Assembly (NCBI RefSeq): GCF_964213995.1
Contig: NC_135809.1
Location: 22,506,001 to 22,570,000, forward strand
Source: Mustelus asterias
Lineage: Eukaryota
Direction of reading: 5' to 3'
Length of the DNA stretch: 64,000 bases
The position numbers were made by a program, and so were the translations under genes. Numbering within the stretch: the stretch's first letter is position 1; each line of letters opens with the position of its first letter. This document shows positions 3,720-61,534 of this stretch, one piece after another. The notes under the pieces are model-generated. The model was not told where the DNA came from. It made no database searches and worked only from the letters and a program-made list of their open reading frames with translations.

Positions 3720-3835
3720 GTTCTCTGCTCAGTTCTGATGAAGGGTCATCGACCTGAAACATTAACTCTGTTTCTCTCCATAGATGTTGCAAGACCTGTT
3801 GAGTATTTCCAGCATTGTCTGTTTGTCTGTTATTA
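3720..3835 (+). mobile_element. Penelope-like 3' end remnant with minimal hammerhead motif (3731-3767)
   Basis: AGTT-CTGATGA-AGGGTC atc GACCT-GAAAC-ATT-AACT, followed by ...gacctgttgagtatttccagcatt. Confidence 0.65.
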
Positions 3836-21676: not shown

Positions 21677-28686
<7,010 letters not shown>

Positions 28687-28801
28687 CTTCCTGGAAAGAG
28701 AGAGACAGACAAAACAGCGGGTTAACAGCGGAACTTTTATACAAATCTCAACCGATTCCTTCCCCTCCCTCCCCCCCCCCGATTTCACCCCGCCAGCTCA
28801 C

Positions 28802-28837
28802 CCGTTACTCCCAAGCGACGCCGTGGTGAAAAGAGAG
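28802..28837 (-). other. RPS16: RPS16 non-coding first exon with 5'TOP
   Basis: Starts ctctcttttc (TOP/TCT-like), ends CGG|gtgagc; intron 28801-28691 (111 nt). Confidence 0.75.
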
Positions 28838-29119: not shown

Positions 29120-29325
29120 ACTTTGAGAAAGTTTATTAGACTAATACCAGGAATGGATGGGTTGTCTTATGAGGAAAGGTTGGAGATATTAGGTTTGAGT
29201 CCACTGGAGTTTAGAAGAGAAAGAAATGACTTGATCGAAACCTTTAGGATTTTGAGGGGTATTGACAGGGAGGATGTTCCTTGTTTGAGAATCCAGAACT
29301 AGGGGTTACTGTTCAAAGATAAGGG
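29120..29325 (+). mobile_element. CR1 fragment interrupted by the Penelope insertion (resumes at ~30743)
   Basis: gggttgtcttatgaggaaaggttgg...agaactaggggttactgttcaaagataaggg. Confidence 0.75.
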
Positions 29326-29383
29326 CAGTAAGAAGTCTCACAACACCAGGTTAAAGTCCAACAGGTTTATTTGGTAGCAAATA

Positions 29384-29420
29384 CCATAAGCTTTCGGAGC
29401 ACAGCTCCTTCGTCAGATGG
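29384..29420 (-). ncRNA. Minimal type I hammerhead ribozyme motif (inverted arm)
   Basis: Reverse complement reads CCAT-CTGACGA-AGGAGC tgt GCTCC-GAAA-GCTT-ATGG. Confidence 0.8.
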
Positions 29421-29997
29421 AGTGGATATCTGTTCTCAAACAGTGCACAGACACAGAAATCAAGTTACAGAATACTGATTAGAATGCAAATCTCTACAGC
29501 CAGCCAGGTCTTAAATGTACAGACAATGTGGGTGGAGGGAGCATTCAACACAGGTTAAAGAGAAGTGTATTGTCTCCAGACAGAACAGCTAGTGAAATTC
29601 TGCAAGTCATGAGGCAAGCTGTGGGGGTTACTGATAATGTGACATAAATCCAACATCCCGGTTTAGGCCGTCCTCATGTGTGCGGAACTTGGCTATCAGT
29701 TTCTGCTCAGTGACTCGCTGATAGCCAAGTTCCGCACACATGAGGACGGCCTAAACCGGGATGTTGGATTTATGTCACATTATCAGTAACCCCCACAGCT
29801 TGCCTCCTGGGCTTGTAGAATCTCACTAGCTGTTCTGTCTGGAGACAATATACATCTCTTTAACCTGTGTTGAATGCTCCCTCCACCCACATTATCTGTA
29901 CCTTTAAGACCTGGCTGGCTGTAGAGATTTGCATTCTAATTAGTATTCTGTAACTTGATTTCTGTGTCTGTGCACCTTTGGAGAACAAATATCCACT

Positions 29998-30034
29998 CCA
30001 TCTGACGAAGGAGCTGTGCTCCGAAAGCTTATGG
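29998..30034 (+). ncRNA. Minimal type I hammerhead ribozyme motif (nested copy)
   Basis: CCAT-CTGACGA-AGGAGC tgt GCTCC-GAAA-GCTT-ATGG. Confidence 0.8.
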
Positions 30035-30612
30035 TATGTGCGACCAAATAAACCTGTTGGACTTTAACCTGGTGTTGTGAGACTTCTTACTATGCTTACC
30101 CCAGTCCAACGCCGGCATCTCCACATCATATCAGTTTCTGCTCAGCGACTCTGCGCTGTTGTGTGTCGTGAAGGCCGCCTTGGAGAACGCTTACCTGAAG
30201 ATCCAGGCAAGACTGTTCTCTTCCCGTGGGGGAGCACTTCAGCAGTCACGGGCATTCAGCCTTGGATCTTCAGGTAAGCGTTCTCCAAGGCGGCCTTCAC
30301 GACACACGACAGCGCAGAGTCGCTGAGCAGAAACTGATAGCCAAGTTCCGCACACATGAGGACGGCCTAAACCGGGATGTTGGATTTATGTCACATTATC
30401 AGTAACCCCCACAGCTTGCCTCATGACTTGCAGAATTTCACTAGCTGTTCTGTCTGGAGACAATACACTTCTCTTTAACCTGTGTTGAATGCTCCCTCCA
30501 CCCACATTGTCTGTACATTTAAGACCTGGCTGGCTGTAGAGATTTGCATTCTAATCAGTATTCTGTAACTTGATTTCTGTGTCTGTGCACTGTTTGAGAA
30601 CAGATATCCACT

Positions 30613-30649
30613 CCATCTGACGAAGGAGCTGTGCTCCGAAAGCTTATGG
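30613..30649 (+). ncRNA. Minimal type I hammerhead ribozyme motif (forward arm)
   Basis: Identical core to 29998-30034; AATAAA follows about a dozen nt downstream. Confidence 0.8.
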
Positions 30650-31589
30650 TATTTGCTACCAAATAAACCTGTTGGACTTTAACCTGGTGTTGTGAGACTT
30701 CTTACTGTGCTTACCCCAGTCCAACACCGGCATCTCCACATCAAAGATAAGGGGACATTCATTTAAAATAATTACTTTGATTGGATGTAATGTAACCAAT
30801 GGGAACAAGATGTAAGGGTCAGCTGACCCAGTAAAACATGGAACCATAAGGAAGGAACTATGTAGAATTGTGGGAAGCTTGGAGTGGCCCAGGGCGAGGC
30901 CCCAACTTTGGAGTAATGATGTTTCTTTATTAAACCCTTTCTTTGATTTATAAGTTGGAGTAAGTTTTATTGTATTTTCATTAGCTGCATTTTTGAAGGG
31001 TTCCTTCTGAAGAAACATGGGATGCCACCTCCTCCCAAAATATACCCCCCAATCGGATTCACCCCGCCTGCATAGGACTCCTCCCCTTCTGCCAGACCTG
31101 ACCCTCACCCCCGAACCCTGACTGGATCTGGCTGGACACCCTTCCACTCAAGACCCCATCGTGTCACTCCAACGCTGCCAACAAACACCCTCCCTCTTGT
31201 GCAGGCCTAGTCCGAGCCTCTCCCACCCAAGGTCCGACTTTAATTTCCCGACCCCTGAAACCGTACCACACCTCCCCCACCCAACTTCTAACCACTTGCC
31301 TTAGACACTGACCTCCCCTTCCATGCACTGTCAATTTCACTGGACCTTGCACTTAGCTGGTTTACGACAGCTAGTGTTGTTAAAAGGACGTGTGGCCTCT
31401 TCACTCCAACTCTCCTGCACTTTGGCACAGGGCCTCAAGGACTGCACTGCCTGATTCTTGACCTGCCTGAGTTGGAAGGTCAGCCGAGAAAAGCTGGAAA
31501 AAATCATCCCAATGTTGTAAAGCAAAATTATACATAAAGCCACATAGGGTGGTATTAGGGCAGATGACCAGCTGGAAGAATCAATTTAT

Positions 31590-43900: not shown

Positions 43901-46900
43901 CTCACAACTGAGCTTGAAGTCAAAGAACAGGAAGAAAATAAGCATCACCTTCATGGGGGTAAAACAGGAAAAGACATTAAATTTAACTGCACTTACCTCA
44001 CTATCATCAAATTCACAATATTGCAAGTTAGCTGCAGTGGCAATCGTTCTTACACACGCATAGGTGTTGTTATATGCATCTTCACAAACACAATCAGGGA
44101 AACAATTCTGTAGGAAGAGTTTGTGACACATTTGAGTGTACAAGAAACAGTTTCAGCCATAAAATGTACATAGTTATGGCTACCCAGTGGTTCATTACCT
44201 CCACTGCCGAAGATAGGTGTAGGTAATGTTTTCACCTGTTAATTTAACATAACATTTCAAAAACTAATGGTTGAATTTCATAGGTACAGCTTGGTTCTAG
44301 GAAGAATTGTTAGTTTTTACTTGAAGATTTTTTATGAGAGAATTTATTTATTAACATTGGGAGATTGGGACAATGGACTTAAGAACGTTGCAAGGATGTT
44401 TGATTTAGAATATTTTTGATTGTTTTTTTTAAAGAATGTTGTGCATTGTCTCTGCTGCTATGGGGAAATTTGTTACAAATGAGCAGAGTTTTCAGAGCCA
44501 CTTGTTGGATATGCATTGGTCTAAAGCCTCTTGAAGTTGAGATAGAAGCTTCCAATAAAACAATTTTAGCTTTGTAGTTAAAGCCTCAACTAGGCTCGAA
44601 AAAAACCCAAGAACTGTGTAATTGAGGTATGCACTGAGTTACCATTCTAAAAAGTGAAGATGGCAGAAATATTAATCTAATGGAGTATTTTACCAGTACC
44701 TTTTATGCCTGCAAATACATATTTCCATGTCACTGAATCAATGCTACCTGTCACTTGCAGATCAAAAAACTAATCCAAAGTGTAGGGGCTCACTTAGTGC
44801 TGGGGCGTGGATGGGGCAGAGTTTGTAAGGAGCATCCAGGAGGGCTTCCTGAAACAGTATGTCGATAGTCCAACTCGGGAAGGGGCCATACTGGACCTGG
44901 TATTGGCTAATGAGCCCAGCCAGGTGGTCGGTGTTTCAGTAGGGGAGCAGTTCGGGAACAGTGACCACAATTCAGTAAGCTTTAAGGTACTGATGGCTAA
45001 AGATAAGTGTAGTCCTCAAGTTAAGGTGCTAAATTGGGGGAAGGCTAATCACAACAATATTAAGCAGGAACTGAACAATGTAGATTGGGGGCAGATGTTT
45101 GAGGGCAAATCAACATCTGGCATGTGGGAGGCTTTCAAGTGTAAGTTGATAGGGATTCAGGACCGGCACATTCCTGTAAGGATGAAGAATAAGTATGGCA
45201 AGTTTCGGGAACCTTGGATAACGAGAGATATTGTGAGCCTAGTCAAAGAGAAAAAGGAAGCATTTGTCAAAGCTAGGAGGCTGGGAACACATGAAGCAAG
45301 GGTGGAATACAAGGAAAGTAGAAAGAAACTTAAGCAAGGAGTAAGAAGAGCTAAAAGGGGTCATGAAAAAGCATTGGCCAGCAGGATTAAGGAAAATCCC
45401 AAGGCTTTTTACACATATATATATATAAAGAGCAAGAGGATAGCCAGGGAGAGGGTTGGCCCACTCAAGGACAAGGTTGGGAATCTATGTATGAAGCCAG
45501 AGGAAATGGGTGAGGTATTAAATGAGTACTTTGCGTCAGTATTCACCAAAGAGAAGGACTTGGTGGATAATGAGTCTGGGAAAGGATGTGTAGATAGTTT
45601 GAGTCATGTTGAGATCAAAAAGGAGGTATTGTGGTTCTTGAGAAACATCATGGTAGACAAGTCTCCAGGACCTGATGGGATATACCCCAGAATACTGAGA
45701 GGGGCAAGAGAGGAAATTGCTGGAGCCTTGAGAGAAATCTTTGTATCCTCACTGGCTACAGGGGAGGTCACAGTAGGAAGTTTAACACCACCAGGTTAAA
45801 GTCCAACAGGTTTATTTGGTAGCAAAAGGGGCTTGGAGCTCCAAAAGCTTGTGTGGGGCTTTTGCTACCAAATAAACCTGTTGGACTTTAATCTGTTGTT
45901 AAACTTCTTACTGTGTTTACCCCAGTCCAATGCTGGCATCTCCACATCATGACTACAGGGGAGGTCCCAGAGGATTGGAGAATAGCCAATGTTGTTCCTT
46001 TGTTTAAGAAGGGTAGCAAGAATAATCCAGGTAATTACAGGCCGGTGAACCTTACATCAGTGGTAGGGAAATTATTGGAGAGGATTTTTCGAGACAGGAT
46101 TTATTCCCACTTGGAAATAAGTGGACGTATTAGAGAGAGGCAACATGGTTTTGTGAAGGGGAGGTTCGTGAGACATGACTTGATCAAGTTTTGAGGAAGG
46201 TGATGAACATGATTGATGAGGATAGGGCAGTGGATGTTGCCTACATGGACTTCACGAAGGCCTTTGACAAGGTCCCTCATGGCAGACTGGTGCAGAAGGT
46301 GAAGTCGCATGGGATCAGAGGTGAGCTGGCAAGGTGGATACAAAACTGGCTCGGTCAAAGAAAACAGAGGGCAGCAGTGGAAGGGTGCGTTATGATTTGG
46401 AGGAAAATGTAACTGGACTGATTTGTAAGTTTGCAGATGACAAAGGTTGGTGGATTTGCAGATAGCAATGAGGACCATCAGAGGATACAGCAGGCTATAG
46501 ATCAGTTGGAGACTTGGGCGGAGAGATGGCAGATGGAGTTTAATCCGGACAAATGTGAGGTAATGCATTTTGGAAGGTCTAATGCAGATAGGAAACATAC
46601 AGTAAATGGCAGAACCCTTAGAAGTATTGATAGGCAAAGGGATCTGGGTGTTCAGGTACACAGGTCACTGAAAGTGGCAATGCAGGTGGAGAAGGTAGTA
46701 AGGCAGCATACAGCATGCTTGCTTTCATCAGCCAGGGCATAGAGTTTAAAAATTGGCAAGTCATGTTAACGCTTTATAGAACCTTAGTGAGGCCACACTT
46801 GGAATATAGTGTTCAATTCTGGTCGCCACACTACCAGAAGGATGTGGAGGTTTTGGAGAGGGTACAGAAAAGATTTACCAGGATGTTGCCTGGTATGAAG

Positions 46901-55900: not shown

Positions 55901-58900
55901 CAAATCACCTGACTCTAACCTCTAGTGGATACAAACCCAACCTTTCCTCAGACGACAACCTGCCCATTCCTTGTATTAGTCCAATTATCTTTCTCTGAAC
56001 TGCTTCTAATGCATTTACACCTTTCCTGAAATAAGACGACCAATACAGTACATGAGACTTCAGATGCTGTCTCACAATATCCTGTGCAGCTGAAGCATAA
56101 CCTCACTACTTTTGAAATTAATTCCCTCACAACAACATTCTATTATCTTTCCCAATTACTTGCTGTGCTTGAATACTAGCCATGTGTTATATGCACCAAG
56201 ATAAGCAGATCCCTCAATCTCAAGAGCTGTTCAACATCTCACCATTTTAGAAAAGCTTTTTTTAAAAATCCTTCCTGCCAAAATTGACAAGTTCACATTA
56301 TACTCCATTTATCAGATTTTTACCCTTCACTTAACCTTTGTCCCTTAGCAACCAAAGTCATTTATATAAATTTTAAACAGTGGAGGTCCTAGCTCAGATC
56401 CTGTGGCACATTACTCTTTATCCACAACACGTGACTCCTTCACAGAACTCCAATAAATTGGTTAAACATGATTTCCCTTTCACAAAACCACATTGACTGT
56501 CTGGTTGCCTTGAATTCTTCCCCAAGTGCCCTGCTAATAGTGGCAGTGGTTAGCACTGCTGCCTCACAGCACCAGGGACCCAGGTTCAATTTCTGACTTG
56601 GGTCACTGTGCAGATTCTGCACATTCTCCCAGTGTCTGCGTGGGTTTCCTCCGGGTGCTCCAGTTTCCTCCCACAGTACAAAAGATACGCTGGTTAGGTG
56701 CATTGGCCATGCTAAATTCTCCCTCCACGTACCTGAACAGGCACTGGCATGTGGCAGTAACTTCATTAACTCTGCAATGTAAGCTTACTTGTAACACTAA
56801 AGGAGTTACATTTACTCTGTTAAACTTCCTGAATCTAGGGAATTAAAACCAATGCATTTACTACCTTATTAGCCACTTCTTTCAAGACCTTGGTGTGAAA
56901 TCCATCTGGACCTGGAAATTTGTTAGCCACAGACCCAACAATTGCTCAAAACCACTTCTCAGCTGAGCAATTATACACTTTTTCTTCAAGTTTAATAGTA
57001 AGTTTTAAAAAAACACATTGGCCCTCCTCCCCTTGTAATTTCCCTTACTTGAATGCATCTTTTGTATATTCTGAAGTATCCCTTCAAATATTTGCCACTG
57101 AACCTCTTACAGATCTATCCCCAACTCGACATTCATATTCGAAAGTTTAAAGTTAGTCTTGGCTATACTTCATTCCCCCAAACTGAAATGTAAAATTCAA
57201 ACACATGATCTCTGCTACCTAGGAGGGTACAGTAAGAAGTTTCACAACACCAGGTTGAAGTATAAATGTCACATCATGGCTACCTAGGAGGGCATTCACT
57301 ATGAAGTTATTAATCTATTGCATTGCACAATACCAGGTCTAATATAGCCTGCCTTCTGGTTGGTTTTGGAATATGCTGTTCTAAGGAACTATCCTGAAAA
57401 CATTCTATGAATTTCTTATCAACACTATCTTTACCCATCTGATTTTTCCAACCCACATGTAGATTAAAATCCATGATTATTTCAGTACCTTTTCTGACAA
57501 GCTCCCGTTATCTTTTTTATACTCTGTCCTACCATGTGGTTGCAATTGGGTGGCCTGTACACCACTCCCATAAATGACTTCTTGCTTTTCTCATCTCAAC
57601 CCAAACTGCTATTACATACTGGTTTCCTGAACTTGGGTCATCCCTCTTGTGCGCTAATACCATCAATTAACAGAGCTACCCTTCCACTCTCTCAACTTCC
57701 TGTCCTTGCCAAATGCCACATGCCTTTCAGGTTCCAATATATACCATTGCGTGGCATGTCTCCAACAGCCATTAAATAGTACTTATTCATCTCTACTTGC
57801 GCTAAGAGTTCATCTGTTTGCTACGTGCATTTAGATACAGACCTTTAGTTTTGTCATTATTTTGGGAGCATCTAGCCTTATCTGCTGATTTACTCTTTGA
57901 TTTGTACTCTGTCATGGTCTATTTGTGAATTTCTTTTATTAGTACCTTTCACTTTTACCTAGTCTCTTGATCCCTTGCCCCCACCATTCAGTTTAAAACA
58001 CTACTTCCCTAGTTACGCAACTCAGTAGAACATCAGCCCCACCATGGTTCAAGTGTAGACCATCCCAACAGTACAAATCCCACTTTCCCCAATACTGGTG
58101 CCAGTGCCCCACACCAGCCTTTGACCCATGCATTCATTTCTCTAACCATATGCCTTATGCCAATTCACTACACTGCTCAGGTGATTACCCAAAAGTTACT
58201 TTTGAAGCTCGGCTTCTTAATTTGGTGCCTAGTTCTTCCTACCATTGGTACCTATATGGACTACGATCACTGGATCTTCCCCCTCCCACTGCAAGTTCCT
58301 CTCCAGCCCTGAGCAGATGTCCCACACCCTGGTATCAGGCAGGCAGAGATGTCTGTACTCTTGCTCCTTGCTACAGAGAAGTGTCAATCCCCCTCACTGC
58401 ATTCTTTGTGCTCCCCTCAAATGGCTTCCTGTACCACAGTGCCATGGTCGGTCAGCTCACCAACCCTGCATTCTCCATTCTTGTGCTCCAGGAGAACGTC
58501 TACTTTTCCTAACTCTGTACATTTTCTACATCTTTCCTCAAAGCTCAGCTTTGCCAATTCAACCCGTCAGCCCTCAAAGTCCAAGACAAGTGTTCTTGCC
58601 TCCCAAATTATTTTTATCATGCAAATTCAAAGAGAAATAAGGCTTCAAATTTTAAAACAAAATTTTAAAAGGGCAGATACCGAATAGAAAGACACCACAA
58701 GTCAGCATTTGCAAGGAGTGGGGGTAACTTTCTCCCTTTATCTTTTACTTGTATGAATGTTAACCAGTATTGTTTTTATTCACCTTCCATTTTGTGCTGG
58801 TGTCTAAAAGGATCTTCAGAATACAGTCAGTTAACCTTTAAAACCAGACAATGTCACTCAAATAATCCTTTAAAAACTTTCAATAAAGCCTGTAATATAA

Positions 58901-60266: not shown

Positions 60267-60732
60267 CGCCTCCAAAACAAGCAAGTAACATCAGCTGATC
60301 ACAGCACCTGGCGAAATCTTCAAAGGGCAATAATAATTCTCAAAGAGAGGATTGCTTATTAAACGCCAATATATTCATACTGAATGCACAATTCTCAGTG
60401 ATCATTTAACATCATGCTGCATCTAGTTGTTAATGTTACTTTTTTTCCGGTGGACCCCACATAATTGCAAAGGATTTCACTTAATTGTGGCTTTAAAACG
60501 GAGGAGTTCGTCTCGGGAGGAAGAGGTGGTGTAGGCTGTTATTGTAACAACTTTGCCACAACGAAATGGTATCTCTTTTAAGATGCCAACTTCATAAACT
60601 AACTCAAACTAACTTAGGGACAAATTAAGAGGTCATGATGTGGAAATGCCGGCGTTGGACTGGGGTAAACACAGTAAGAAGTTTAACAACACCAGGTTAA
60701 AGTCCAACAGGTTTATTTGGTAGCAAAAGCCA

Positions 60733-60769
60733 CACAAGCTTTCGAGGCTCTGAGCCCCTTCTTCAGGTG
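60733..60769 (-). ncRNA. Minimal hammerhead ribozyme motif (left arm)
   Basis: Reverse complement of 61428-61464. Confidence 0.75.
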
Positions 60770-61427
60770 AGTGGGAATTCTGTTCACAAACAGAACTTAT
60801 AAAGACACAGACTCAATTTACATGAATAATGGTTGGAATGCGAATACTTACAACTAATCCAGTCTTTAAGAAACAAAACAATGGGAGTGGAGAGAGCATC
60901 AAGACAGGCTAAAAAGATGTGTATTGTCTCCAGACAAGACAGCCAGTGAAACTCTGCAGGTCCACGCAACTGTGGGAGTTACAAATAGTGTGACATAAAC
61001 CCAATATCCCGGTTGAGGCCGTCCTTGTGTGTGCGGAACTTGGCTATCAGTTTTGCGGTCACGGGCATTCGGCCTCTGATATTCGGGTAAGCGTTCTCCA
61101 AGGCGGCCTTCGCGACACACGACAGCGCAGAGTCGCTGAGCAGAAACTGATAGCCAAGTTCCGCACACACAAGGACAGCCTCAACCGGGATATTGGGTTT
61201 ATGTCACACTATTTGTAACTCCCACAGTTGCGTGGACCTGCAGAGTTTCACTGGCTGTCTTGTCTGGAGACAATACACATCTTTTTAGCCTGTCTTGATG
61301 CTCTCTCCACTCCCATTGTTTTGTTTCTTAAAGACTGGATTAGTTGTAAGTATTCGCATTCCAACCATTATTCATGTAAATTGAGTCTGTGTCTTTATAA
61401 GTTCTGTTTGTGAACAGAATTCCCACT

Positions 61428-61464
61428 CACCTGAAGAAGGGGCTCAGAGCCTCGAAAGCTTGTG
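61428..61464 (+). ncRNA. Minimal hammerhead ribozyme motif (right arm)
   Basis: CAC-CTGAAGA-AGGGGCTC a GAGCCTC-GAAA-GCTT-GTG. Confidence 0.75.
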
Positions 61465-61534
61465 TGGCTTTTGCTACCAAATAAACCTGTTGGACTTTAA
61501 CCTGGTGTTGTTAAACTTCTTACAAATTAAGAGG

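Follow-up and report, generated by a model that had tools for sequence, protein, structure and literature searches.

Penelope-like elements (PLEs) typically form partial tandems with an adjacent inverted truncated copy and carry a 30-40-bp tail at one end (available text of PMC8557442, PMC2377424 and PMC3846280). The formation of the tandems was called unexplained in 2008 (PMC2377424, available text). Pairs of minimal hammerhead ribozymes on opposite strands, 100-700 bp apart, were noted earlier, and the same source describes circles from PLE hammerheads and weak cleavage by the minimal motifs (PMC4209133, in its available part). In the anole element PAc the tail is bounded by two RT start sites, and hammerhead cleavage is protein-assisted in vitro (PMC11167929, available sections). 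A PLE origin of animal retrozymes was suggested some time ago (PMC7229834, available text), and a 2026 preprint, in its available part, argues that animal retrozymes derive from PLE pLTRs, one cartilaginous fish being included (bioRxiv 10.64898/2026.07.22.740005). The supplements of that preprint may list the family described here. No description of this shark PLE family or locus was found in the literature searched, the limited coverage of which makes this weak evidence.

The window analysed here is a stretch of 64,000 nucleotides of contig NC_135809.1 from the shark Mustelus asterias. It contains a 1,418-bp insertion (29326-30743) with an exact 13-bp target-site duplication (TSD), consisting of four 5'-truncated pieces of one element's 3' end in the order A (inverted), B (direct), C (inverted) and D (direct) (Table 1). 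The element is an endonuclease-bearing (EN+) Penelope-like element, as seen from its GIY-YIG ORF end, pLTR hammerhead, inverted truncated copy, tail and target-site duplication. The locus is best read as a compound insertion of 5'-truncated PLE copies that likely originated in two steps and is likely inert as a ribozyme unit. This reading is given a probability of about 0.8.

Table 1. Coordinates of the compound insertion, its ribozyme motifs and the neighbouring gene, as positions in the window.
Feature	Position	Strand	Evidence or remark
RPS16 first exon and first coding exon (neighbour gene)	28638..28837	-	sequence; downstream exon 26630-26731 identified
Left copy of 13-bp target-site duplication, TCAAAGATAAGGG	29313..29325	.	
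Arm A, inverted PLE 3' end without tail, equivalent to D 30707 to 30317	29326..29716	-	
Arm-A hammerhead motif	29384..29420	-	motif and pattern search
Left copy of 23-bp duplication flanking B	29694..29716	.	22/23 identical to 30129-30151
Piece B, PLE 3' end (pLTR) in direct orientation, tail included, equivalent to D 30334-30743	29718..30128	+	
Hammerhead 1 (minimal type I; helix III a palindromic AGCU); cut predicted after 30030	29998..30034	+	
Arm C, inverted arm continued, equivalent to D 30339 to 30263; left arm of hairpin	30129..30205	-	
Piece D: ORF end, 3' UTR/pLTR, hammerhead and tail; 5'-truncated	30204..30743	+	
End of PLE ORF (65 codons and stop), encoding the C-terminal portion of the GIY-YIG endonuclease	30205..30402	+	homologue search
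Hammerhead 2; predicted cut after 30645; 6-bp distal helix I past a 6-nt bulge	30613..30649	+	
PLE tail, 33-36 nt, on B and D, missing from A	30708..30743	+	
Right copy of 13-bp target-site duplication	30741..30753	.	

The initial annotation had taken two identical same-strand hammerheads for the boundaries of a retrozyme-like, self-excising RNA unit. The motifs themselves were confirmed, with plus-strand starts at 29998 and 30613 and a third copy on the opposite strand (minus-strand start 29420). The predicted cuts after CUU at 30030 and 30645 and the 615-nt spacing follow from the motif layout, and the assignment to the minimal type I hammerheads of PLEs is supported. All three copies read CCAT-CTGACGA-A-GGAGC/TGT/GCTCC-GAAA-GCTT-ATGG. 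A hammerhead-like pattern ending in GAAAGCTT has five matches in the window, namely the three locus motifs, 60736-60766 and 61431-61461, and 0 matches in each of 100 shuffles. The cut position was set with helix I as CCAU/AUGG; placing the cut after UUA would leave helix I unpaired, and this option was discarded. The motif has the features listed in the available text of PMC4209133 (an extra nucleotide before helix II, G10.1-C11.1 and a palindromic helix III), and its MFE of -10.7 kcal/mol passes the cut of -5 used in the available part of the 2026 preprint (bioRxiv 10.64898/2026.07.22.740005). An Rfam search of the whole window with 4227 families gave no match at the gathering scores. The locus hammerheads are the normal pLTR motif of the family, and two of them lie 615 nt apart on the plus strand because each 3' end carries this motif.

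Between the two subfamilies present in the window, the sole change in the hammerhead core is at the free position 7, accompanied by compensatory changes in helices I and II. This comparison, made by eye, points to a hammerhead under selection within the PLE family. A minimal hammerhead of another family is found at 3731-3765; it has a CTGATGA core, GAAACATT, a helix I of AGTT/AACT and a palindrome that is broken at a CpG. Contig loose ends of other subfamilies at place 30044 read AAAGCTC, that is, a CUC and not a CUU triplet, and activity may therefore differ between family members.

The hairpin reported between the plus-strand motifs, with a claimed length of about 75-80 bp, measures 77 bp (30129-30205 with 30263-30339; 76 Watson-Crick pairs and one G-U) and is the inversion junction. 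Its left arm, C, has the right-hand 23-bp duplicate (30129-30151) at its start. An AATAAA lies at 30047, 16 nt past the first cut site. Two features go beyond the earlier description: over ~390 nt the minus-strand copy is almost perfectly complementary to each of the two plus-strand copies, and the interval contains the PLE ORF end.

The 65-aa ORF end has 20 homologues among 33 candidates, the best being a Mustelus asterias protein at 98%. It matches the C-termini of RT-bearing proteins, one of 643 aa at 85% and one of 881 aa at 69%, and Pfam GIY-YIG was detected in two of the four homologues scanned, once above the cut-off and once just below. A Pfam search with the 65-aa piece itself returned 0 families; in the ESM Atlas the piece led to unnamed eukaryotic clusters and to a GIY-YIG lead at 0.89. 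The close homologues P0001, P0010 and P0015 carry a CX4CxxC linker, and the matching region lies outside the window. According to the available text of PMC8557442, a CX2-5CxxC motif in the RT-EN linker marks Neptune and Nematis. The element likely belongs to the Neptune clade because its homologues bear this linker. The locus has no intact autonomous ORF; with 65 codons of the ORF end only, it is a truncated member of the family and not an active element. Annotated shark isoforms of XRCC5, FAM210B, septin 5a and FAM204A (P0011, P0013, P0017 and P0020) contain the PLE endonuclease end, which reflects either exonisation or annotation error.

The family has a very high copy number. Contigs from four of the 23 runs listed were compared with the 583-bp stretch 29680-30262; the largest run contributes 43,349 aligned contigs. 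Loose ends that continue into unrelated flanking sequence gather at 30091/30094 and 30129/30130, which are the two ends of the family. The same two ends are seen in the window: each of the four family insertions examined (29.3, 45.8, 57.2 and 60.6 kb) has a head-to-head layout in which one side ends with the tail and the other without it, and each is flanked by a 13-14-bp duplication. The insertion at 60633-61524 is a second palindrome from a related subfamily (~82% to D) with a 13-bp TSD; its arms differ at 4 of 379 positions, and its hammerheads, at 60770 (minus) and 61427 (plus), lie on opposite strands and show compensatory changes. Those at 45770-45952 and 57228-57278 are very short, consisting of just two 3' ends with a 14-bp TSD each. 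The 45.8-kb insertion lies inside LINE-like sequence, and its tail arm begins within hammerhead helix II. Six of the arms extend as far as the cut site, and all six continue past it (A, B, D, the two at 60.6 kb and the tail arm at 45.8 kb); the templates were therefore uncleaved or re-ligated RNA.

In one contig, 30128 at the tail end and 29718, where B starts, are joined across 4 letters; this may come from a head-to-tail pair of pLTRs at another genomic site that shares the truncation position. Contig joints that skip B (29699-29716 to 30137-30242) were not used, as any ordinary family copy yields them. Letters differing from the locus are given at two places only and were likewise not taken as a basis for ranking subfamilies. 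A joint from 30645 to 30031, which the initial annotation had offered as a check for circular RNA, is no valid test, since it is mimicked by every family copy that spans its own hammerhead.

RPS16 lies on the minus strand, its exon at 26630-26731 matching Pfam S9/S16 and the 40S protein S16. Its start is probably near 28837, as judged from a pyrimidine-rich start motif, and the compound insertion sits ~490 bp upstream of that point. The promoter is a CpG island (CpG o/e 1.05), and between 28800 and 30047 the plus strand has neither AATAAA nor ATTAAA. The left flank of the insertion looks like a decayed LINE-like ORF end, probably of CR1 type, with repeat copies at other places in the window. 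In arm A the hammerhead and an AATAAA (29371-29420, minus strand) face the RPS16 promoter. Long double-stranded RNA is possible from either strand of the whole insertion (29326-30743), and a 1.4-kb palindrome ~490 bp from a ribosomal-protein promoter could be a source of such RNA.

Dimer cleavage of PLE hammerheads has reportedly been described by Lünse et al. The energy model used here does not include tertiary contacts, and only energy comparisons are therefore meaningful. Within 29950-30700 the dimer fold costs 10.1 kcal/mol by MFE and 11.9 kcal/mol by ensemble, as compared with 9.2-9.4 kcal/mol for two isolated motifs. The proposal that the nesting had created a tandem geometry for dimeric cleavage holds in so far as the dimer fold is feasible in this segment, but a special geometry is not supported, the arrangement being the typical PLE layout (PMC8557442, available text). 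The cost varies with the transcript start: it is +115 kcal/mol when arm A is included, 29.6 kcal/mol from a start at 29450 and 14.9 kcal/mol from a start at B. When arm A is included, hammerhead 2 pairs with A in 200 of 200 sampled structures, and in a fold of A and B only, hammerhead 1 is fully paired (37/37 nt) in a 364-bp hairpin. A transcript from the RPS16 side is predicted to form a long A-B or A-D duplex (~390 bp) and no dimeric ribozyme. The 615-nt unit has a folding z of -17.5, which was considered and rejected as a selected structure; this value is due to the inversion, and beyond the inverted repeat the stretch 30340-30645 has z +0.54, with 67 of 100 shuffles folding as well. The "structured" character that the initial annotation gave to the 615-nt RNA is not supported as a sign of selection, the hairpin being the inversion junction.

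The differences between the pieces bear on how the insertion was built. A and D differ at one of 389 aligned columns and C and D at one of 77, each time by a CpG transition, whereas B and D differ at 18 of 411 columns. With the 60.6-kb copy as outgroup, 13 of these 18 differences are B-derived, 4 are D-derived and 1 is neither; none of the 13 B-derived changes is at a CpG of D. With 13 of 18 differences on its side, B would need a diverged source copy, and a young copy of such a source fits these changes better than decay in place. Apart from the 23-bp overlap, A and C make one continuous inverted arm. The nesting assumed by the initial annotation is supported, and B was likely nested in an earlier A-C-D palindrome because of its 18/411 divergence from D and the 23-bp duplication around it.

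The first step would begin with the RT-endonuclease of the element cutting both strands 13 bp apart. One RNA would then be copied twice, from the tail start to give D and from the no-tail start to give A and C, and the product would be a head-to-head palindrome as in the three other family insertions of the window. In the second step B, copied from another template, would enter the inverted arm, split A from C and leave the 23-bp duplication. The 5' end of B (30334) lies within a stretch homologous to its own target (30317-30339). This suggests that the incoming RNA may have paired with the target overhang at the homologous position; such pairing would account for both the length of the inner duplication and the 5' end of B. 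An alternative for that 5' end is a truncation hot spot, given that the tail arm of the 60.6-kb copy ends at 30331.

Two observations stand against the two-step nesting: the 23-bp inner duplication is longer than the TSDs of the family (13-14 bp), and B carries more derived changes than D. A single insertion event with two RNA templates, in which D is copied, a fold-back produces C, a jump to a second RNA produces B and arm A is joined, would fit the presence of only one outer TSD. For PLEs, the available text of PMC3846280 discusses both self-priming and palindromes where copies join in inverted orientation, and the end of the 60.6-kb tail arm near D position 30331 hints at a stop hot spot. 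This history, however, needs three breakpoints (30317, 30334 and 30339) within 23 nt, whereas nesting merges two of them into one duplication and leaves A and C as one continuous arm. The one-event history is considered unlikely, though it deserves some weight; its outcome would be equally inert, differing in history only. The palindrome and tandem could also be false, made by the mis-joining of repeats during assembly. Long near-perfect inverted repeats in a very high-copy family would invite such an error, and among the contigs listed none spans 29680-30262 or bridges a locus-specific junction. Yet the TSD is an exact 13 bp, the 23-bp inner duplication and family-typical ends are in place, the arms show CpG-type differences, and B is no duplicate of D. 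Judged on this internal evidence only, an artefact is very unlikely.

The remaining readings would make the locus a working RNA element. Divergent transcription from the RPS16 promoter, releasing and circularising a 615-nt RNA, was the route favoured by the initial annotation, and the CpG-island promoter nearby and the lack of plus-strand AATAAA/ATTAAA between 28800 and 30047 agree with it. The route is unsupported because the transcript must cross arm A, and this arm is predicted to tie up one of the hammerheads; A would pair with B co-transcriptionally (364 bp) or with D at equilibrium, at +115 kcal/mol. By these predictions it would be the route least likely to work, and it is hardly credible. 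B could possibly start its own transcript by analogy with Drosophila, in which the Penelope pLTR holds an internal promoter (PMC2377424, available text). A start inside B would bypass arm A, and for this reason the retrozyme idea has some room left. A nascent retrozyme or mini-PLE of this kind would use the B-internal promoter, cleave as a dimer, perhaps aided by the PLE protein, be closed into a circle by a host ligase and be copied by RT into tandem arrays. Without A the geometry is dimer-competent at +11.9 to +14.9 kcal/mol (ensemble), near the model baseline. A type I hammerhead with an intact core stands at each unit boundary, 615 nt apart; the unit includes the tail with both RT start ends, and its length is inside the 51-972-bp range of vertebrate families (bioRxiv 10.64898/2026.07.22.740005, available part). 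Retrozyme monomers have been circularised in vitro by RtcB (PMC7229834, available text). But the locus holds 1.67 copies and no head-to-tail tandem of at least two units, and TRF with published parameters found no tandem repeat at a maximum period of 500, 1000 or 2000. The cut triplet is CUU, which belongs to the last class of triplets as ranked from trans-acting ribozymes (PMC8879150, available text), and minimal PLE hammerheads are poor cleavers or protein-dependent; one of nine Xenopus dimer elements cleaved in vitro (bioRxiv 10.64898/2026.07.22.740005, available part). Moreover, the AATAAA at 30047 could stop transcripts ahead of the second motif, and the inversion accounts for the 77-bp hairpin. 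The unit is at best a shortened pLTR-ORF-pLTR element, and a nascent retrozyme is improbable. Slightly more doubtful still is the idea that a shark retrozyme was born here in a datable event, in which an RNA-DNA-guided insertion of B at the homologous place of the inverted arm would have created, in a single step, a pLTR-short interior-pLTR unit with a promoter, two hammerheads and the RT start tail, giving a 615-nt circle that the PLE RT copies. On balance, the locus is likely to be a commonplace inert insertion and not a functional circular-RNA element.

As it stands, the locus adds a further complex PLE insertion to a genome rich in them. It is nevertheless a clean natural construct with which to ask whether two pLTRs suffice to produce a circle, a question that bears on the proposed PLE-pLTR origin of animal retrozymes. 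If insertion at the element's own homologous position, as with B, proves frequent across the genome, it would be relevant to the way in which PLE tandems form.

Among known systems, the locus resembles the endonuclease-bearing PLEs (Neptune likely) in its GIY-YIG end, pLTR hammerhead, partial tandem and inverted copy, tail and TSD. It differs from them in having no full ORF and in its tandem, which likely came from a copy landing in an inverted arm and not from head-to-tail joining at the 5' end. With PAc, the Poseidon element of Anolis carolinensis (PMC11167929, available sections), it shares a hammerhead placed just upstream of two tail-bounding 3' ends and copies that extend through the cut site, consistent with an uncleaved RNA template. 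PAc belongs to another clade, and its cleavage was assayed in vitro. The Adineta Pen3a captures and Chlamys MRC1, which are non-autonomous and pLTR-bounded, moved as units; the two direct pLTRs of the locus, in contrast, come from different templates. With the metazoan non-LTR retrozymes, as described in the available parts of PMC7229834 and bioRxiv 10.64898/2026.07.22.740005, the locus has in common a same-strand pair of type I hammerheads a few hundred nt apart, a weak palindromic helix III and pLTR-related sequence. Unlike them it has 1.67 copies in place of a head-to-tail array and a minimal rather than a canonical motif, and it carries an ORF remnant, an inversion and an adjacent antisense arm.
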